Positions 4,100 through 46,099 of a stretch of DNA of 64,000 bases are shown piece by piece; the first letter of the stretch is position 1; each line of letters begins with the position of its first letter. A program made the translations under genes and the position numbers. The stretch is taken from IMG/VR virus record IMGVR_UViG_3300037424_000564, positions 128,001-192,000 of that record; one strand, given 5' to 3'. The notes below the pieces were generated by a model, which ran no database searches, had not been told where the DNA came from, and was given only the letters and a program-made list of their open reading frames with translations. Source of the stretch: a virus. Its lineage: Duplodnaviria > Caudoviricetes.

Positions 4100-4305
4100 G
4101 ATAATTTAATTCCACAAAAAGGACAGAAATTAAAAGGCAAAAATGTATGTTCTTCATCTTCAATGTAAATTTCATCGATTGAAATTCCGTATTGATTTAC
4201 TTCAAACATATCAATTGTACCATTCCAATTATCTTTTTTGTACTTATAATCATATTTGTAAAATTCACAACCATCTGCATGTTTTGCTAGTTCTTCGTTT
4301 GTCAT
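4096..4305 (-). CDS. Small hypothetical protein with CxxC
   Basis: 69 aa, ends FNFCPFCG. Confidence 0.55.
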   Translation of the reverse strand: MTNEELAKHADGCEFYKYDYKYKKDNWNGTIDMFEVNQYGISIDEIYIEDEEHTFLPFNFCPFCGIKLS

Positions 4306-5285
4306 TTAAAGTCTCCTTTAGATGCGAACCATTCTTGGTTCAGTTTTACCAACATATCATTAATAGTATTATATTGTGGTTTATCTGGAAGTTCAGTTTC
4401 TGTTGCTACGGTATTGATATCATTTTCAATATCATCAGCCATTTCTGAAACTTCAGCTAATGAGTATTCACCATTGCGAATTTTCATTAGTAGTGGTTTG
4501 TCTACCAACGGAAAGATCAAATTTCCTGTTTCAAGAAGTTCTTTTCCTTCGAGTAGAAGTCTAATAAGATGCATTGCAAATTTGGTATCATAACCATATT
4601 CATCCACCATTTCTTTTCTACCAGAGAATTTTGATTTTCTGATTTCTAGTTGTTCTAATGCTTTTTCAATAGTAATATTTTTCTGAATATTAATATCTCC
4701 ACATTTCATATGGATACTATTAATAGGAAACTCAAAAATATGCTTGCCATCATCATTAAGAAAAAAACAAAGATCTGTAATATTTTCGGCTACATATGTT
4801 TTAGGTTGCAATTTACGGAGAATATTGATCGCTTCCTCAATATTGAACATATTATTTCGTTTAACAAACATGTTTTTCTTCTGACCAATAGCGTAACCAA
4901 TAAATCTATTCTTGAGTCCTTTATGTAAAAAATTGAATCTATTTTCAAGAAGTTGATCGCCATACCAGTTTTTATAGATAATATTTTCAGGTGTCACGAA
5001 CAATTGTTCAATGATATTTGGATTATTATCTAATGCTAGTTTCACGAATTTACGAACTTCATAAAATTTACGATCAATAGCATCAGAAGCATTCCTGCCA
5101 TTTTCAAGCTTTGATACTGTAGATAGATCTACTTCTTCGACTTTATCCAAACCAAAGAAATAATTAATAGGAGGAACAAAGATACCAGAATAATCTTCAT
5201 CAGATTCAGGACGATTCAACCCATAAAGATGTGAACCAACTTTAATTTCCAGAACTTTATTTTTTAATACGATTTGTTTAATCAT
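4302..5285 (-). CDS. RlaP/NrdC.11-like nucleotidyltransferase (Pol-beta superfamily)
   Basis: VGSHLYGLNRPESDEDYSGIF motif and YDTKFAMHLIRLL helix. Confidence 0.85.
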   Translation of the reverse strand: MIKQIVLKNKVLEIKVGSHLYGLNRPESDEDYSGIFVPPINYFFGLDKVEEVDLSTVSKLENGRNASDAIDRKFYEVRKFVKLALDNNPNIIEQLFVTPENIIYKNWYGDQLLENRFNFLHKGLKNRFIGYAIGQKKNMFVKRNNMFNIEEAINILRKLQPKTYVAENITDLCFFLNDDGKHIFEFPINSIHMKCGDINIQKNITIEKALEQLEIRKSKFSGRKEMVDEYGYDTKFAMHLIRLLLEGKELLETGNLIFPLVDKPLLMKIRNGEYSLAEVSEMADDIENDINTVATETELPDKPQYNTINDMLVKLNQEWFASKGDFK

Positions 5286-10111: not shown

Positions 10112-10522
10112 TTAATTATCTACTTTATTTTCAAAAAAAGCAATTGGATAAGGATCACCCAACAGTACTCTCATTGCATTCAATCCTTCACGGATAGGAT
10201 CTGATTGGAGATAATATTGAAGAGTGATACGTTCCCATACATCCATTTTTCTAGGGAATGTAAGAGTTACGTGACGTTTAGGTAACCCAGATTTAGAAGG
10301 ATGAATTTCTTCTTTTTCTGTATAATAACCAACATCATTCCCAAGTTTTTCTAGATTCTTTTTAAATTGTGTAAATTGTTCATCAGTATCGATATCAAGT
10401 TGTAATTGATATTCAGTAGGGAGTACTACTACCATATTTAATTCTTCTGCTACTACATATGGATCACGATTAATTCCATATATAAATTCTGCTTTATTTG
10501 CAAGTTCTTCCAATAAATCCAT
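10112..10522 (-). CDS. Hypothetical protein
   Basis: 136-aa ORF directly downstream of the PARP gene. Confidence 0.6.
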   Translation of the reverse strand: MDLLEELANKAEFIYGINRDPYVVAEELNMVVVLPTEYQLQLDIDTDEQFTQFKKNLEKLGNDVGYYTEKEEIHPSKSGLPKRHVTLTFPRKMDVWERITLQYYLQSDPIREGLNAMRVLLGDPYPIAFFENKVDN

Positions 10523-10525
10523 AAA

Positions 10526-11725
10526 TTAACCTTTCATTTGAATGAGATATTTAACAGTGGTTTGTGCTTCATTATAAACAATATATTCGTTATTACGAAG
10601 ATCAGCACCACCTTCCGCAAAGACAGAATCATACTGTCCTTTGTTTTTGAGTTTTGATTCATCCAGACTCGACATCCACGATTCATGACGTTTCAAATGA
10701 AATTTATTACCAACATGAACATCAAAAAGTGCCATATATGCCTCGTCAGCACCACCTTTAGCCCAATAAGAGCCTCTTGCAGACGTATAACCCCATGATT
10801 TCTGTGCTTTATCCGCAAAATAAGTTCCATAGCCAAACATCTTACCAGTAATAACTGCATTAGTAGGGCGAAGAACTAGACCAGTTTGAAGAATAGGCAA
10901 CCAGTTTTCATTTCGAGAACCATGAAAAAATAGATCAGTCGCTTTGTTTTTAGAGTTATTCACATAAGAATCAAACCGTTTCTTGGTATTTTTATTTTCA
11001 ATCATATAACCACGAACATAGTTTGAGCTAAGGTTAGCAAGCTTAGATTTAATTATTTTTTCTTCATCAGATTTGATATTGAAAATATTAATTCCCATAG
11101 CATCAAGAATGGTCAAGTTATCGTTTTTGTTTTCTTTAACAAGAACAGTTTGATTGACCTGTTGTGACATGGTATCAAGAAGATCCTGTTCTTTCGCTAC
11201 AGTTTCTTCAATGTTTCCATAAACAAAATCATCACTTTCTTCAAAAAGATGATCTGCAACTTTCTTCATTTTACGAGGAATAACAGTGAATAGTTCAATG
11301 AGAACTTTATTCATTTCACGATTCGATTTAACTTGCATCAAAGCATTCAGAAGATTCTGTGCTTCTTTGATTTGTTTTTCAGTTACAGTATCAGCGGTGA
11401 CATTGTAGTTATTTGCTACTTTATGTTTGGTGTATTGTTCTAGTTTACGAATCAGATTTGAAATATATGTGTCAGAGATATCAAGAAAACTAACTGCATC
11501 TTTTTTATCTTCAGTGACAAAAAGTTCAGTTACATCTTTATATCCTTTTTTAATTTTGGATGCATGGAGAGAACTCCACTTTGAAGAAGGATATGAAGCA
11601 GTTTGGCCTGATGTACCTACTCGACCAAATTCGATAGAAATAGTAGAACCATTATCTACCATATTATAAAATTTGTTGTTATTCTCTGGGGTAATCATGA
11701 GTAGTTTAGCTGTGCGAGTCGCCAT
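10526..11725 (-). CDS. WGR-domain poly(ADP-ribose) polymerase (WGR, helical regulatory region, PARP catalytic domain)
   Basis: NNNKFY...IEFGRVG (WGR); FHGS, GKMFGYGTYFA, YDSV, NNEYIVY (H-Y-E triad). Confidence 0.9.
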   Translation of the reverse strand: MATRTAKLLMITPENNNKFYNMVDNGSTISIEFGRVGTSGQTASYPSSKWSSLHASKIKKGYKDVTELFVTEDKKDAVSFLDISDTYISNLIRKLEQYTKHKVANNYNVTADTVTEKQIKEAQNLLNALMQVKSNREMNKVLIELFTVIPRKMKKVADHLFEESDDFVYGNIEETVAKEQDLLDTMSQQVNQTVLVKENKNDNLTILDAMGINIFNIKSDEEKIIKSKLANLSSNYVRGYMIENKNTKKRFDSYVNNSKNKATDLFFHGSRNENWLPILQTGLVLRPTNAVITGKMFGYGTYFADKAQKSWGYTSARGSYWAKGGADEAYMALFDVHVGNKFHLKRHESWMSSLDESKLKNKGQYDSVFAEGGADLRNNEYIVYNEAQTTVKYLIQMKG

Positions 11726-12032
11726 TTATTTTCTCCTTTGATATAATCTGATATTAAATCAAAAATATTTGTATGTCAATTATAATCTTCCATTTTATCC
11801 CAATCAAAAGGATCAGTATAACTTTCATAAAAATAATCAACTTCTGCTGTACGATCATTACGTTCAGTACTACACAGATCTTCATATTGATCATAAGAAA
11901 TACATTGGTTGGTTTATTTATGTCTATAATAACCTTCATCATAACTTTCAGATTTAGATCCAGTTCCATCAACAAATTCCCAATCAGTGATAGATCCCAA
12001 TTTAGAGTTGATAAATGCCATTTCTATTCTCC

Positions 12033-12375: not shown

Positions 12376-12404
12376 ATATTACCATTAGTTATTTTATCTG
12401 TCAA
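12376..12404 (-). promoter_or_regulatory. Sigma70-type early promoter
   Basis: TTGACA-17 nt-TAATAT. Confidence 0.7.
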
Positions 12405-12906: not shown

Positions 12907-12935
12907 ATATTAATTTATCACGAATTTATTGTCAA
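12907..12935 (-). promoter_or_regulatory. Sigma70-type early promoter
   Basis: TTGACA-17 nt-TAATAT. Confidence 0.7.
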
Positions 12936-12938
12936 TTA

Positions 12939-12971
12939 AAAAAGCCCATCTATAATTTAGATGGGCTTTTA
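12939..12971 (-). terminator. Intrinsic terminator after uvsX
   Basis: AAAAGCCCATCTA-TAATT-TAGATGGGCTTTT perfect stem with T/A tails. Confidence 0.9.
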
Positions 12972-12992: not shown

Positions 12993-14189
12993 TTATACTT
13001 CTTCTGTTTCCTCTTCATCATCGTCTAGATTGAGTTCATCTTTGACCGACATGTACTTGAATTTACTACGAAGAAAGTCACCTAACCACAGAGTAAGAAA
13101 TTCTTTCCAGAATTCATCAGTTAATTTTGATTTAGAAAATACTTCATCTTTCATGAAATCCACAGATACTTTTTTAGGATTCATTTTGAATGATTGTTTT
13201 TCTTTGGTAAATACACCTTCATCTAGACAGAATTGAAGCAATCCAGAATACATAGTCAAACCAGCTTCGAAGTCAATTGTGAATTTGACTTTTGTTTTTT
13301 CTTTAGCAGTTCTACATTTAGTAGTGGTAGAAGTAATCAAACCACCAGTAGTACTACCGTTACTAGCTTTCTCTTGTGCTTTGGTAAATTCATTGATGAT
13401 GGATGCATTGTATAAACTACCAGAACCACCACCAATTACTTTACCACCAAATCCACCAATTTGATCATATACGTGATTAATAGCAATGATAGGTACGTTT
13501 TTAATACCTGCTCTCATTGTGCAAGTTCTGAAGAAAGCTTTGAGTTTGGATGCTCTAGTCATATCTTTTGTTTCTGAACCAGATTGTGTATCGTCGATTT
13601 CTTTGTTGGTAGAAATATTACCAATAGAGTCAATTCCGATAATGACTTTATCTTCTGGACCAACTTCATCAAGAATATTCAATACAGAAGTCATTAGGGA
13701 TTCTACTGTGTCTACAGGGATATAAAGTAGTTTGTTAAGGTCGATGCCTCTTTGTTTCAAATCTTCTTTATTATTATTAGCCATTTCTGTATCATAAAGT
13801 ACAGCAAAGTATCCCATTGCTTGTGCGACTTTGATTGTTTCTAGCATTAGGAAAGTTTTACCACAAGAGTTAATACCAGCTAATTGCCAGATACGACCAG
13901 AAGGTAAACCACCATCATATCTAGATGAAATTTGAGCATTTAGAAGAACGTTGCCAGTTGAAATCCAATCTCGAATGGGATACTTATCAATTTCATCCTC
14001 TCCCATAAGTTGAGCATAATCAGAAGCAGATGAAGACATTAGACGTTCGCCAAAACTCATTTTCTTTTTCTTTTCTTGTGCTTCTTTATCGTTGTCCTTT
14101 AGAATTTTCTTTTCTTCTCTGCTTAATTTAATACCATTTTCTTGTTTGAATCTTAATTCCATTAGTTCTTTTTCAGTTACTTTTGCCAT
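12993..14189 (-). CDS. uvsX: UvsX RecA-like recombinase
   Basis: ISTGNVLLNAQIS, GLPSGRIWQLAGINSCGKT, IGIDSIG, DMTRASKLK, INHVY, GGSGSLYNAS. Confidence 0.93.
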   Translation of the reverse strand: MAKVTEKELMELRFKQENGIKLSREEKKILKDNDKEAQEKKKKMSFGERLMSSSASDYAQLMGEDEIDKYPIRDWISTGNVLLNAQISSRYDGGLPSGRIWQLAGINSCGKTFLMLETIKVAQAMGYFAVLYDTEMANNNKEDLKQRGIDLNKLLYIPVDTVESLMTSVLNILDEVGPEDKVIIGIDSIGNISTNKEIDDTQSGSETKDMTRASKLKAFFRTCTMRAGIKNVPIIAINHVYDQIGGFGGKVIGGGSGSLYNASIINEFTKAQEKASNGSTTGGLITSTTTKCRTAKEKTKVKFTIDFEAGLTMYSGLLQFCLDEGVFTKEKQSFKMNPKKVSVDFMKDEVFSKSKLTDEFWKEFLTLWLGDFLRSKFKYMSVKDELNLDDDEEETEEV

Positions 14190-14882: not shown

Positions 14883-16592
14883 TTATTCTATCTCCAATAT
14901 CTTAGAAAATCCTTTTTCCATTATAACGTTATATGTCTTGTCAAAATAGCCAGAATCAAGATCATTGTTGTGATTTATAGTTAATATACATTTATTCTGA
15001 TAATCTGTATGTTCTTTGAGAATATCAAATAAAGAAACTGTTCCGGTTGCATCAAGACCTGACATAACTTCATCAAAAATTAATAGATTAGTATTAGATT
15101 TTTTATTTTTATGCATTGCGAATTTTATAAAAGTAAATAGAATTGCAAGATCAATACGTTTTTTCTCACCTTCACTGAAATTATGATAACTATAATCTTC
15201 TTTGTGTCTTGTATTTATAACCTCATTAAAGTTGGAATCAAAGTTAAAAATAGTATTTGCATTGAATTTAGTTAGATATGTATTAAGTAGGCGATTAATA
15301 GATGGTAAATATTTATTAATAATGAGTGGTTTCATTCCATCATCAGAAAATAAACTTCGTAACACAAGAAGATGTTCTTTTTTATTACATAGCTTATTAT
15401 ATGTATCAGTAAGATCTATCTTTCTATTATTATACTCGTTAAATTTACTTTCGTCAATTGTAATTACTTTCTCTCTAATGATAGAAATTTGTGATTGTAA
15501 CTTATTAATTCTGTTTGTATTTTCGATAAGCCCATTATTGACAAAATTTTCATTATTTATAATTCTATTCGCCTTATCAATGGAATCAAGAATAGATTTC
15601 AAAATTAATTTATATTCATCTAACTCAACTTGATAATTCTCTAATAATACTTTATTTTGATTATTATTTTCGTCATTATTTAAATTTATTATATTAGGGC
15701 AACTACCGCAGGTATTCTTGAGGAATAATATCTTCTCTTCATGTACACCAATAGCTATTTCTAATTCAATTTTTTTGTTTTCGATTATATCTATTTTACT
15801 TTGGATATCAGTACGACTTTTGATAAGATTTGCTTTATCAATTTTCTTTTTATTAATTATTTCTATTCCAGTTTTAAATTTAATATTTTTATCTTGTAAT
15901 TCTTTAATTTCTTCTTGATATGATGAAATTAAAATGTCTGCTTCTAATTTTAATTTAGTTTGAAGATTTTTCATTTTTTCGAGATTAGCAAGTTCTTGTT
16001 CAATTAATAAATTAATATTATCAATATCTTTTTTTGTATCTCTAATTGTTTGGTCTGTTTGGTCTGTTTTAATTTTAAGATTCTTAGATATTGTAGTAAA
16101 TAATTCAATGTCAAATAAATTTTCAATAATTGATCTTTTTTCTGCTTTATCTAATGTCATAAACGATGCAGATTTAGTAAGACTTTTAAATATAACTTGA
16201 TTAGATAAATTCTCATTGAACCCAAGGATATCATCATCTAGAATTTGTTGATATCCTCGTTTGTTACTAGATACAGGAATTATCTCATTATTCTTATATA
16301 TTTTAAATGTATCTGGTTTTAGAGTACGAGATATAATATATTCATCATCTTGTTTCTTAAATTTAAGATGTACTTCCAAACCTTTTTTATTTTTAGAATT
16401 TATTAGTTGTTTAATTTTTATTTTTCTATACGGTTTGCCATATAACGCAAAATAGATAGCATCAATAATGGAACTTTTACCCATACCATTACTTGCTTGT
16501 ATTTTACAAACTCCCGTAGTAAAGTCAAAAGTAGTCATATTATTACCATATGATAATAAATTTTTCCATTTGACTGTTTTAAATTCTATCAT
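14883..16592 (-). CDS. gp46: gp46 recombination endonuclease subunit (SbcC/Rad50-like)
   Basis: WKNLLSYGN, SNGMGKSS Walker A, coiled coil with CGSC hook, FSEGEKKRIDLA signature, LLIFDE. Confidence 0.95.
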   Translation of the reverse strand: MIEFKTVKWKNLLSYGNNMTTFDFTTGVCKIQASNGMGKSSIIDAIYFALYGKPYRKIKIKQLINSKNKKGLEVHLKFKKQDDEYIISRTLKPDTFKIYKNNEIIPVSSNKRGYQQILDDDILGFNENLSNQVIFKSLTKSASFMTLDKAEKRSIIENLFDIELFTTISKNLKIKTDQTDQTIRDTKKDIDNINLLIEQELANLEKMKNLQTKLKLEADILISSYQEEIKELQDKNIKFKTGIEIINKKKIDKANLIKSRTDIQSKIDIIENKKIELEIAIGVHEEKILFLKNTCGSCPNIINLNNDENNNQNKVLLENYQVELDEYKLILKSILDSIDKANRIINNENFVNNGLIENTNRINKLQSQISIIREKVITIDESKFNEYNNRKIDLTDTYNKLCNKKEHLLVLRSLFSDDGMKPLIINKYLPSINRLLNTYLTKFNANTIFNFDSNFNEVINTRHKEDYSYHNFSEGEKKRIDLAILFTFIKFAMHKNKKSNTNLLIFDEVMSGLDATGTVSLFDILKEHTDYQNKCILTINHNNDLDSGYFDKTYNVIMEKGFSKILEIE

Positions 16593-17707
16593 TCATCCTC
16601 CATATTAAACGCTTCATCATTTGCGTTTTTATATTCTTCAATAGCACAATCAACCAATAATGTTTTATCTATTCCCGGCTCAAATGTCATACCTTGAATA
16701 CACGCTATTATCAATTCAAGAGTAGATTCTTCTTCTATAAATTTTTCATCAAATGAACTAGAATCAAAGTCTTCAACAACATCTTGAGTCTGAACAACGC
16801 TAATTTTATAATCATTACATGATATGGATGATATACTAGCTTGATATGTTTCGAGTGCTAAAGGATTATCACTTTTTTTAACATATATTCTGACATAGTT
16901 ATGTTTAGCTATATCTAGGGATTCTTCTTTTGATATAGGTTTTGATTCAGATAACCCATCAACTGTTAAATCACCGTTGTCATACCATATCTTTATAAAT
17001 TTGGGATTTGTGTTATTTTCAATAAATCTCTTTCCAAAATTATCATCTAATACATAGAAACCTTTCTGTGTATTAAAATCATTCCAAGTTAATTGATATG
17101 GTGTGCCTATCATAATAACATTATCACGCTGAAAATTTATATGATAGTGTCCAGAGAATACATATTTATATTCCTTAAATTTAGTATGAGAGTATCCAGT
17201 TTTCCCTGTGATACCTTTTATCATAGGGAAATCTTTTAATTCAAGATGACCTATCAAAATATCACATTTTTTAGGAAATACCTCTTTATTGGTATCTACG
17301 ATCCAAGGAACAAATCCTATAGTATATTTTTCTATAATCTTTACTTCTTGTTTGTCATAAACGATTATATTTCTATATTCTCTTGTAGTTTTTGTTAAAG
17401 AATTTTGTGATATTTTATCTTTATAATAGGTATCATGGTTGCCTACCAGCATATGCAAAAATACATCATTAGAATCAAACCAAGCAAAAAATCTATCTTT
17501 AATTTCATCTAATATAAGCCAATCAATTTTTTCTCTGGAATGAAAAAAGTCGCCAGAGAAAATAACATTTTTGATTTCATTTTGGATGATATAGGGAAAG
17601 AATTGTTGTTCGAAAAAATTCATTTGTTCTTCAAACATTGAAACTGAAAAATTTGATATTCCAAAATGTATATCCGACACTAAAGCTATTTTGGGATTAA
17701 AATCCAT
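16589..17707 (-). CDS. gp47: gp47 recombination endonuclease subunit (SbcD/Mre11-like)
   Basis: SDIHFG, GDFFH, VGNHD, GHLE, SGHYH, GTPYQLTWND; likely start MDFNPK. Confidence 0.95.
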   Translation of the reverse strand: MDFNPKIALVSDIHFGISNFSVSMFEEQMNFFEQQFFPYIIQNEIKNVIFSGDFFHSREKIDWLILDEIKDRFFAWFDSNDVFLHMLVGNHDTYYKDKISQNSLTKTTREYRNIIVYDKQEVKIIEKYTIGFVPWIVDTNKEVFPKKCDILIGHLELKDFPMIKGITGKTGYSHTKFKEYKYVFSGHYHINFQRDNVIMIGTPYQLTWNDFNTQKGFYVLDDNFGKRFIENNTNPKFIKIWYDNGDLTVDGLSESKPISKEESLDIAKHNYVRIYVKKSDNPLALETYQASISSISCNDYKISVVQTQDVVEDFDSSSFDEKFIEEESTLELIIACIQGMTFEPGIDKTLLVDCAIEEYKNANDEAFNMEDE

Positions 17708-18197
17708 CGTTTTGTTCCTGTTTACACTCTTCTGCTGCATCTTCATCATAAAGATTTATTTTATCTAATGAATACATACTCTGTTCATTAATAGTATCAA
17801 ATTTTATTTTGGATTGAGTATCTTCGTTGTTCCAGATTTGACGAAAGGAAAATTCAGTGATTTGAGTGAAATATGAAAAGGCATTATTAGATTTTTCAAC
17901 ATTAAAATTATGGGCATATTTGACACAGGTTAAAATAGCTTCAGATCGCATTTCATCGATATAAGTATATCCCCTCCATCTTGGTTTCAATGCATAATGA
18001 TTTACTATTTTCATAATACAAATAGCAATATATTCTGTCATTGGTGTCCATTCTGTTCTATTCTTATCTCTATCATTTTCTGAATTCTCTGCTATCCATG
18101 CGGCTACTGCCTCTGTAAACTCTTTGTTGTTTACATAATGTGGATTTTCTGTAGCTCTTTTTGATAATTTTCTTTTTGGTTTTACTTTATCGACCAT
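17697..18197 (-). CDS. gp55: gp55 late sigma factor
   Basis: HYVNNKEF...YTYIDEM...YAHNFNVEKSNNAFSYFTQI; gp55-gp47-gp46 synteny. Confidence 0.93.
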   Translation of the reverse strand: MVDKVKPKRKLSKRATENPHYVNNKEFTEAVAAWIAENSENDRDKNRTEWTPMTEYIAICIMKIVNHYALKPRWRGYTYIDEMRSEAILTCVKYAHNFNVEKSNNAFSYFTQITEFSFRQIWNNEDTQSKIKFDTINEQSMYSLDKINLYDEDAAEECKQEQNDGF

Positions 18198-20800: not shown

Positions 20801-20853
20801 AATAATTCTCCTTGATTTTGAGATATATTATAATTAGATTTTTTATTTGTCAA

Positions 20854-44953: not shown

Positions 44954-45217
44954 TTACGCAGATTCCCATGGTTCTGCTAATAGTAATGATGATGCGTGTA
45001 TCCACATTCCTTCAGATTTGTTGTTAATATAACACGATGGATTATCACAAATCATAAAATAATTTGATGTTGCTATAATCTTTTCAGATTTTGCCATTAA
45101 TCCAAGATTACACATTGGGCATTTATATATAAAATCTTCGTGCATTTTTTGTTTTCTTTCAAGGAGTAAATTCATATAAGTAAATATCAACATTATGACG
45201 TTGTGATATTTTTTCAA
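44954..45217 (-). CDS. Small zinc-ribbon hypothetical protein
   Basis: CPMC...CDNPSC; likely starts at MHEDF. Confidence 0.45.
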   Translation of the reverse strand: MKKYHNVIMLIFTYMNLLLERKQKMHEDFIYKCPMCNLGLMAKSEKIIATSNYFMICDNPSCYINNKSEGMWIHASSLLLAEPWESA

Positions 45218-45656
45218 TTATCCCATATACAGTAGACCAGTCACCATTAGCTAGACCGCATCCAACTAGATAAGGCATTCCAATTTTATTTCCTTTTTCG
45301 GGGAAATCAGTAATAAGAAATTTAATATTGATAATGCAATCATTAAGTCCTCGTTCAAAAGCAGCATAATCGGTATACACTACATTTGGATCAGCCCCGT
45401 AGTAAAATTGACCATACATATTAAAAATATATTTTTCTAAATTATTGTTTAACATGTGAGTATCTAATGCAAAGCTATAAGATCCCAATTTACATTTAGG
45501 TGTTCTTACATCTTTAATAAAAGATTCATATGCTCTTGGGTAAATTTTTCTAATTTGTCCAGCAATACCACTACCAAATCCACCGTGACAATTACTTTGA
45601 TGGATTATATATCTACAATCAGATATTAATAAATTTCCTTGTATATGATGAATCAT
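45159..45656 (-). CDS. Macro domain protein (ADP-ribose processing)
   Basis: IQGNLL, IHQSNC.G.FGSGIA.QI...YP, NMYGQ, MP..GCGLANGDW. Confidence 0.9.
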   Translation of the reverse strand: MIHHIQGNLLISDCRYIIHQSNCHGGFGSGIAGQIRKIYPRAYESFIKDVRTPKCKLGSYSFALDTHMLNNNLEKYIFNMYGQFYYGADPNVVYTDYAAFERGLNDCIINIKFLITDFPEKGNKIGMPYLVGCGLANGDWSTVYGIIEKISQRHNVDIYLYEFTP

Positions 45657-45658
45657 AT

Positions 45659-46099
45659 TTAATCCTTATAGTTATTTTTCTTATAAACTTTACGCATACG
45701 ATATTCAAAATATCGACCATATCTACCAAGGATAACTGCCATTTGTTCAGGAGTTAATTCTTTCATTTGGGTAATACCTGACATATAATACATTCGAAGA
45801 CCTTCTAAACCAGTTCTGAATTTAGGCTTTCGTAGTAAATTATATGTCAATCTCATTCGTTCTTTTTTCCTACCAACTGTATTAGTTTTCTTCATTACAT
45901 CCATAATATTTTCGTAAAGTTCGATTCTATGCGGTTTGGCTATCCAGTGCATATTAAGTCCTAGAATGGAATCTGGTCTTATATCTATTATAAAAATTAA
46001 AGGAGTTTTGTCATAGACAGGTAATGTACCTTCTCCTATAGCTTTATATCTGAAACTATATACTTTATTATAATCAATTTTCATTTTCCATCTTTTCAA
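45659..46099 (-). CDS. gp2-like DNA end protector, short paralog
   Basis: YSFRY...TLPVYDKTPLIF...LGLNMHW. Confidence 0.7.
   Translation of the reverse strand: MKRWKMKIDYNKVYSFRYKAIGEGTLPVYDKTPLIFIIDIRPDSILGLNMHWIAKPHRIELYENIMDVMKKTNTVGRKKERMRLTYNLLRKPKFRTGLEGLRMYYMSGITQMKELTPEQMAVILGRYGRYFEYRMRKVYKKNNYKD

Follow-up and report, generated by a model that had tools for sequence, protein, structure and literature searches.

A WGR-PARP gene in a T4-like phage genome, its viral and bacterial relatives, and its possible role on phage DNA

Described PARPs and the architecture of the phage protein

PARP genes with a conserved catalytic triad were described in Aeromonas phage Aeh1 and Cellulophaga phage phi4:1 by Perina et al. 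in 2014 (PMC4245714), and Iyer et al. reported in 2021 and 2022 that PARP-type enzymes occur in jumbo phages and are among the most frequent viral families of ADP-ribosyltransferases (ARTs) (PMC7824862, PMC9503650). In bacteria, HaPARP from Herpetosiphon aurantiacus and CdPARP from Clostridioides difficile CD160 were shown to carry out DNA-dependent auto-PARylation in vitro (PMC5966428), and both enzymes were also used in a 2026 bioRxiv preprint. In animal cells, enzymes of the PARP type serve to mark DNA that is broken. Here, we describe the PARP gene found at positions 10526-11725 of a 64,000-nucleotide stretch of phage DNA (Duplodnaviria; Caudoviricetes), hereafter referred to as the window, which comprises bases 128001-192000 of IMG/VR record IMGVR_UViG_3300037424_000564. 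The record is 205,056 bp long, is rated complete by CheckV and represents a T4-like phage. Phage PARPs as a kind are not new, and this gene is a further member of a family that is common among environmental phages. In our analysis, it would encode an active DNA-end-activated ART of the PARP1-3/bacterial type which acts on phage DNA intermediates, a reading to which we assign a probability of about 0.6.

The first-pass annotation of the window had proposed a phage-encoded protein composed of a WGR domain, a helical regulatory domain (HD) and an ART domain, in which the H-Y-E triad is intact, and these proposals stand. The ORF listing and the translation give an uninterrupted open reading frame (ORF) of 399 residues on the minus strand at exactly the coordinates proposed, and Pfam, profile and structure evidence agree on a domain architecture of the PARP1-3 type. 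The Pfam PARP catalytic domain (PF00644) covers residues 242-398 (E 1.8e-25, 90.1 bits for a cut-off of 26.7), Pfam WGR covers residues 14-46 with 22.0 bits, exactly its cut-off, and the whole protein matches PHROG 23333 (phrog_23333) with an E-value of 1.9e-64. In a phmmer comparison with PDB sequences, residues 113-398 pair with the PARP1 catalytic fragment (1efy/1a26, E ~2e-14), and the motifs FFHGSR (H268), GYGTYFAD (Y302) and NNEYIVY (E380), which contain those quoted in the annotation, align to the PARP1 residues H862, Y896 and E988. Among 37 aligned homologs, with identities of 46-75%, H268, S270, Y302, K309, S310, Y313 and E380 are all invariant; these residues correspond to PARP1 H862, S864, Y896, K903, S904, Y907 and E988. 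The position of PARP1 Y986 is occupied by N378, an invariant Asn.

An AlphaFold2 model computed from the homolog alignment (pLDDT 86.5, pTM 0.82) returned as its top Foldseek matches in the PDB the DNA-break-bound WGR-HD-ART fragments of PARP1 and PARP2 (7s6h, 4dqy, 6x0l and 7aeo; E 1e-16 to 1e-17). Using VIA-align, residues 1-399 of the model superpose on PARP1 543-1007 (4dqy_C) with a Z-score of 25.2 over 356 residues and a root-mean-square deviation of 3.7, while residues 81-399 superpose on PARP1 662-1007 for dozens of catalytic fragments, with Z-scores of 23-24 for those of PARP1/2/3. Six helices of the model cover residues 86-209 and form the helical domain. Pfam PARP_reg gave no match at E<=1 on the 399-residue protein, and the assignment of this domain is therefore based on structure and phmmer. 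García-Saura et al. observed that the helical domain of bacterial PARPs often goes undetected by PARP_reg, yet is visible in models (PMC5966428). The helical domain had been called reduced; judging from the model, in which residues 81-399 cover PARP1 662-1007 and six helices are present, it is full length and the PARP_reg profile merely misses it. It is the WGR domain, with ~70 residues, that is the short part of the protein.

To the WGR domain, a profile built from 22 N-termini (A3) adds best PDB matches to the WGR domains of PARP2 (6f5b/9zq9, E 0.0016) and PARP3 (2eoc, E 0.008), in which the motifs NNNKYY and GRVG are paired. Across the homolog alignments, N17, K18, Y20, G34, R35, W50, K57, K60, G61 and Y62 are invariant. 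The first position of the WGR signature is a Phe in this phage and a Tyr in most relatives; Y or F at this position is common in bacterial PARPs according to García-Saura et al. (PMC5966428).

Compared with human PARP1, PARP2 and PARP3 (WGR-HD-ART structures 4dqy, 7s6h, 6x0l, 7aeo, 6f5b and 2eoc), the phage protein has the same three-domain order, the same triad and the equivalents of K903, S904 and Y907, and the donor-loop region of PARP1 aligns to it without gaps (phmmer). However, identity to the human enzymes is ~22-26%, the phage WGR domain has ~70 residues instead of ~110 and F in place of W, and the phage protein lacks an N-terminal extension, a zinc finger and a BRCT domain. It also differs from PARP1 by the Asn at the Y986 position and by a loop before the catalytic Glu that is ~30 residues shorter. 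HaPARP and CdPARP share its minimal architecture and size class but belong to other clades, whereas the phage protein groups with viral sequences beside the Bacteroidota chromosomal clade. Among named phages, gp031 of Cellulophaga phage phi4:1, gp111 of Klebsiella phage vB_KpM_FBKp34 and the homolog in Xanthomonas phage XacN1 are 34%, 27% and 25% identical, respectively, over 98-100% of the protein; all three are already annotated as PARP in GenBank, with all three domains named in the case of FBKp34. T4 Alt, ModA and ModB are likewise phage-encoded ARTs that use nicotinamide adenine dinucleotide (NAD), but they are mono-ARTs of the R-S-E clade without WGR or helical domain, whereas the phage protein belongs to the H-Y-E clade.

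Distribution and gene neighbourhoods of the family

PARPs had been described as rare in phages. This holds for cultured phages, of which 16 out of 50,697 records encode a PARP, with a best identity of 38%, but not for environmental phages: metagenome-derived proteins yield 4,395 matches at E<=1e-5 (best identity 76%), many of them located on contigs measuring 100-500 kb, relatives were recovered from at least 224 IMG/VR contigs, a number which is a lower bound obtained with two peptide patterns only, and such phage PARPs are on record in the literature. In cellular genomes, 151 species representatives were found, nearly all of them Bacteroidota (Saprospiraceae, Cytophagales, Spirosomataceae). 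These include isolates in which the gene resides on a megabase-scale contig and is 40-49% identical to that of the phage, namely Fibrisoma limi, Spirosoma soli, Spirosoma oryzae, Flexithrix dorotheae and Flavilitoribacter nigricans. In a FastTree phylogeny against bacterial PARPs, midpoint-rooted for drawing only, a Bacteroidota clade (70 rows) and a viral clade (87 rows) are set apart, and the phage protein pairs with that of locus L006 (support 100) inside the viral clade. The family is widespread in large environmental phages, and it is the closest counterpart in the prokaryotic world of the eukaryotic DNA-damage PARPs.

Gene neighbourhoods were counted over 80 related viral loci, with de novo clustering of the neighbours, and over 80 bacterial loci. 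In 36 of the 80 viral loci, a macrodomain (Macro) of ~145 residues is encoded ~10 bp upstream of PARP on the same strand. The main subtype is a TARG1/OARD1 homolog (E 5e-25 to 4j5r) in which the catalytic Lys and Asp are kept. This Macro-PARP pair is preserved across at least six different flanking contexts, in several of which a DNA ligase gene directly precedes the macrodomain gene; the ligase is NAD-dependent in 16 loci, and an ATP-dependent ligase is present within 10 kb of PARP in 21 loci. In a neighbouring clade, the order is DnaB, DnaG, PD-(D/E)XK nuclease, PolIII-alpha, ERCC4 nuclease, DNA ligase, Macro and PARP. When mapped on the PARP tree, Macro-PARP adjacency falls essentially into one clade of 44 rows with 2 changes, which means that the linkage has a single origin and has been maintained over long divergence. 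PARPs of such cassettes (L048, L031 and L057) are 40-44% identical to the phage protein, and their clade shares an unresolved node with its clade. The two-gene cassette is nevertheless absent here: whereas the cassettes have a TARG1-like eraser ~10 bp upstream, the phage has no macrodomain directly upstream, and the one it does encode belongs to a different subtype, with a Gln at the position of the catalytic Lys, and is located at a distance of 34 kb. Several contigs filed as 'Ruminococcus', 'Treponema' or 'Bacteroidales' metagenome-assembled genomes (MAGs) that carry PARP, mostly as the Macro-PARP pair, look like phage. Similarly, L161 (JBBACR010000001.1), a contig of 425,361 bp deposited as a MAG of a 'Candidatus Pacearchaeota archaeon', is identical in size and in its PARP to the IMG/VR jumbo-phage contig IMGVR_UViG_3300035208_004923 (L056); it probably represents a phage genome that was assigned to an archaeal MAG during binning.

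A second recurrent neighbour is a conserved small gene (~100 residues; class 100-150 residues) located directly downstream of PARP in 46 of the 80 bacterial (Bacteroidota) loci. The same small partner is found near PARP in 11 viral loci and also in phi4:1, where it directly follows PARP and is itself followed by a DNA ligase gene; in the genome of the phage studied here, a search for it gave no match at E<=1. The small partner belongs to no Pfam family and has only a faint winged-helix match (E 0.09). It carries the motif TTTLEVK...GY[IV]AFQ...NG.FR.Y (examples are L095:6861-7160, L098:7254-8198 and L166:5654-6118), and variants of ~314 residues contain a second WGR domain, which scores 26.6 bits with Pfam. 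The gene directly upstream of PARP in phi4:1 encodes a tRNA nucleotidyltransferase/poly(A) polymerase (L166:3750-4484). In FBKp34, a macrodomain is encoded 2.4 kb upstream of PARP. The phage studied here thus differs from both, having neither macrodomain nor small partner and ligase nearby, and its PARP follows uvsX in a T4-like module. On the bacterial side, a pPIWI_RE_Z domain protein (Pfam E 7e-19; L158:7574-8035) is encoded just downstream of the chromosomal PARP of Spirosoma soli, and homologs of it occur near PARP in six other Bacteroidota loci, a hint that some bacterial PARPs may reside in defence islands.

The gene had also been placed just downstream of a uvsX-gp46/47 block. This position is real, but a hairpin and the gene's own promoter intervene, and the arrangement recurs in only one or two of the 80 viral loci, L006 being one in which PARP also comes after gp47, gp46 and uvsX. 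Given the scarcity of the arrangement, and with a hairpin and separate promoters between the block and PARP, we rejected this linkage as a clue to function. What gives the locus its value is instead the family-level context, which comprises the gene's own promoter, its location in DNA-metabolism modules, the maintenance of a small partner or a TARG1-like eraser, often together with a ligase, and the presence of NAD salvage genes, and not the rarity of the gene. This context offers a test ground, in cultured relatives, for what a minimal virus-run WGR-PARP does.

A probable DNA-end-activated enzyme and the alternatives to it

By analogy with the solved PARP1/2 complexes and with the two bacterial orthologs, the WGR domain would bind a DNA nick or end, the block imposed by the helical domain on the NAD site would then be released, and the enzyme would ADP-ribosylate itself and nearby acceptors. 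It would act on intermediates of the replication, recombination and end joining of phage DNA, and not on host proteins in general, because the family's neighbours are DNA-metabolism genes in two unrelated replication-module types, one with uvsX/gp46/47 and the other with DnaB/DnaG/PolIII-alpha. The promoter suggests that host RNA polymerase would transcribe the gene early, and a salvage route made of NadV and an NMNAT-Nudix fusion, both encoded elsewhere in the genome (Table 1), would regenerate NAD from the nicotinamide released.

A number of observations weigh against this assignment. Firstly, the bacterial enzymes that were assayed, HaPARP and CdPARP, come from other clades, and we found no paper in the literature that assays a phage PARP or a member of the Bacteroidota/viral clade. 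Secondly, the phage has neither an adjacent eraser nor the small partner. PARG (PF05028, PF10021), ARH (PF03747) and NADAR (PF08719) were not found in its genome, the PF05028 search being uninformative as it was silent in every control genome too, and the only macrodomain of the genome lacks the catalytic lysine of TARG1 and DarG. Thirdly, Macro adjacency is confined to essentially one clade and hence to one origin instead of repeated independent linkage, and uvsX adjacency is common to only one or two relatives. Fourthly, the W of the WGR signature is a Phe and the C-terminal part of the PARP1/2 WGR domain is missing, so recognition of DNA ends could differ. Finally, polymer formation is uncertain because an Asn replaces Y986 of PARP1 and the loop preceding the catalytic Glu is ~30 residues shorter; the lack of a PARG match also bears on this point. 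The triad alone does not settle whether the enzyme makes monomers or polymers, because PARP3 carries the H-Y-E triad and yet is treated as a mono-ADP-ribosyltransferase (PMC5725667; preprint).

The first-pass annotation had suggested PARylation of host proteins or DNA ends and the protection of replication intermediates, which are to be taken as hypotheses. A different possibility is that the enzyme serves host takeover, ADP-ribosylating host proteins such as RNA polymerase, translation factors or defence proteins early on as T4 Alt, ModA and ModB do, possibly with chains, in which case DNA sensing would be incidental. Iyer et al. proposed such a role for jumbo-phage PARPs (PMC7824862), and the early sigma-70-type promoter, located within a run of small promoter-bearing genes, would suit it. 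Likewise, no Alt/VIP2-type ART (PF03496) was matched anywhere in the genome, and PARP is the only ART detected there. We nonetheless consider this role unlikely, since the strong conservation of the WGR and helical domains (G34, R35, K57 and K60 are invariant) would be unexpected were DNA sensing and autoinhibition dispensable, and since the genes found beside the family serve replication and repair or encode ligases, with no head or packaging genes among them.

Another proposal starts from the DNA ends themselves: ADP-ribose placed on terminal phosphates at nicks and ends of the phage DNA would mark or shield these ends until a macrodomain uncaps them and a ligase seals them. There is precedent for the chemistry. 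PARP3, which has the same architecture, attaches single ADP-ribose units to the terminal phosphates of 5' and 3' ends, a modification that is reversed by TARG1 (PMC5725667); PARP2 and PARP3 both modify ends in vitro, and modified ends resist phosphatase (PMC5725667, PMC5861426). In addition, the order ligase, TARG1-like Macro, PARP recurs in the neighbouring clade, and in this phage a gene for a gp2-like DNA end protector (phrog_429, E 5e-20) precedes the macrodomain gene at a distance of 3 bp (window 45159-46099, minus strand). For the phage, however, capping can only be inferred: no macrodomain or ligase gene adjoins its PARP gene, its macrodomain has no catalytic lysine, the macrodomain family is found in 2,639 cultured phage records that nearly all lack PARP, and the linkage seen in relatives reflects one origin. 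We therefore hold capping to be rather improbable. The same applies to its extension to the whole family, according to which phage WGR-PARPs would be DNA-end rather than protein modifiers, with the ends of replicating or recombining phage DNA marked, or shielded from host nucleases and from premature ligation, and with NadV and NMNAT-Nudix recycling nicotinamide and ADP-ribose; this too is quite doubtful. If true, it would amount to a self-contained, NAD-driven control of DNA ends in viruses, and to a plausible forerunner of eukaryotic PARP signalling.

The macrodomain itself is the only one matched by our searches of the genome. It scores 17.7 bits with Pfam Macro, which is below the cut-off, and its best PDB matches are 5m3i and 5m31 (E 1e-6 and 1e-5, respectively), both of which are DarG macrodomains (PMC5179494). 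It is 35-36% identical to macrodomains of the same subtype that adjoin PARP in loci L024 and L077; a pattern search of viral contigs with the single macrodomain protein found no relatives. Whether it is a hydrolase is uncertain because a Gln replaces the catalytic Lys (DarG K80, TARG1 K84) and an Ala replaces TARG1 D125, and we regard it as a candidate ADP-ribose reader or eraser. As an obligatory partner of PARP, it was rejected: among 18 PARP phages without an adjacent macrodomain, only 4 encode the family elsewhere in their genome and the closest relative (100% complete) does not, the cultured records with the macrodomain family far outnumber the 16 with PARP, and adjacency has one origin on the tree.

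The first-pass annotation had also raised the consumption of NAD as a role. On this reading, the enzyme would lower NAD or generate ADP-ribose products so as to blunt NAD-dependent host defences. Activated PARPs are indeed strong consumers of NAD, as is generally known. NAD and ADP-ribose are central to the conflict between phage and host (PMC9503650). Yet this phage invests in NadV, NMNAT-Nudix and a DNA ligase that depends on NAD; this indicates that it needs NAD, and the autoinhibitory helical domain, which is retained, puts a limit on free-running turnover of NAD. The role is therefore disfavoured, and we judge it very improbable. NadV-family genes were found in 11 of 17 near-complete PARP phages, a set of related genomes counted without correction for relatedness, compared with a published 22-33% for medium-sized and jumbo phages; this co-occurrence is no more than suggestive. 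Finally, a catalytically inert protein that keeps the fold and serves as a DNA-end binder or decoy is barely credible, since no NAD-site residue varies among the 37 homologs, whose identities go down to 46%, and such conservation would be unexpected in a protein that does not catalyse.

The locus in this phage

Coordinates of the features discussed are collected in Table 1.

Table 1 Features of the PARP locus and related genes of the phage. Positions refer to the window unless marked as genome positions, which lie outside the window.
Feature	Position	Strand	Evidence or remark
PARP gene P0001, 399 residues	10526..11725	-	ORF; Pfam PARP; PHROG 23333; AF2 model; 4dqy_C
Compact WGR domain, ~residues 1-70, F33-G34-R35 replacing W-G-R	11516..11725	-	Pfam, profile A3, model
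Helical (regulatory, HD-like) domain, ~residues 81-210, six helices	11096..11485	-	phmmer, VIA, model
ART catalytic domain, ~residues 211-399	10529..11095	-	Pfam, phmmer, homolog alignment
Shine-Dalgarno AAGGAG, 7 nt before PARP ATG	11733..11738	-	read from sequence
Predicted sigma-70-type promoter TTGACA-N17-TAATAT, 26 nt before PARP ATG	11751..11779	-	motif
Promoter-motif copies	11751-11779, 12376-12404, 12907-12935, 20825-20853	all -	intergenic, just upstream of small genes
Palindromic terminator-like hairpin, separating uvsX from the small promoter-bearing genes before PARP	12940..12970	.	13 pairs, 5 G-C, T-rich tail
uvsX	12993-14189	-	upstream of PARP
gp46-like gene	14883-16592	-	upstream of PARP
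gp47-like gene	16589-17749	-	upstream of PARP
136-residue ORF, 3 bp past PARP stop, probably co-transcribed	10112..10522	-	no Pfam/PHROG match
Macrodomain, phrog_335, DarG/Poa1p-like, 34 kb from PARP	45159..45656	-	phrog_335 E 2.1e-38
NadV/NAMPT, 460 residues	genome 102288-103670		
NMNAT-Nudix fusion (NadM type), 346 residues	genome 108292-109332		
NAD-dependent DNA ligase	genome 270-1944		two tblastn pieces near record end; may be split or truncated

On the minus strand, in the sense of transcription, two helicase genes are followed by genes for a gp55-like late sigma factor, gp47-like and gp46-like proteins, a 156-residue ORF and uvsX. After uvsX come the terminator-like hairpin, two or three small ORFs, PARP, the 136-residue ORF and further small genes, and then genes for an HD phosphohydrolase and an RlaP-like nucleotidyltransferase. 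The small ORFs directly upstream of PARP in the window have no family match.

Across the 205-kb genome, the exact promoter motif is present in 5 copies on the coding strand and in none on the opposite one, where 0.1 would be expected. Four of the 5 copies share AATTGACA, and three are clustered within 1.2 kb at the PARP locus. From this motif, we infer that PARP is transcribed early from its own sigma-70-type promoter and not by read-through from uvsX. Shine-Dalgarno-like motifs precede 57% of the genes of at least 100 residues, compared with a background of 4%.

The 136-residue ORF downstream of PARP belongs to a family with 1,059 representatives at E<=1e-3. Its model (pLDDT 93.6) is ferredoxin-like, with a best PDB match of only Z 4.8. 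Invariant residues include D43 and D45 (LQIDID), S76, S78/G79 (PSKSG), H84 and D108/R111/E112, and the order of these motifs resembles that of AEP primase-polymerases, although LigD polymerase domains match at noise level only. We rejected this ORF as an ADP-ribose-related partner of PARP, given the low Z-score of its best PDB match, the noise-level match to AEP polymerases and its absence from all 80 related PARP loci.

At 11791-12020 on the minus strand of the window, an ORF of 35 codons that is preceded by a strong AAGGAG terminates in TAA, after which ~40 acidic, coding-looking codons continue in the same frame without a start codon of their own. This may be a small gene that was broken by a nonsense change; the suppressor tRNA of this phage reads UAG, not UAA. 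The RlaP-like nucleotidyltransferase gene (phrog_388; window 4302-5285, minus strand) has counterparts within 10 kb of PARP in related loci, such a gene being found in 16 of the 80 viral loci, this window included.

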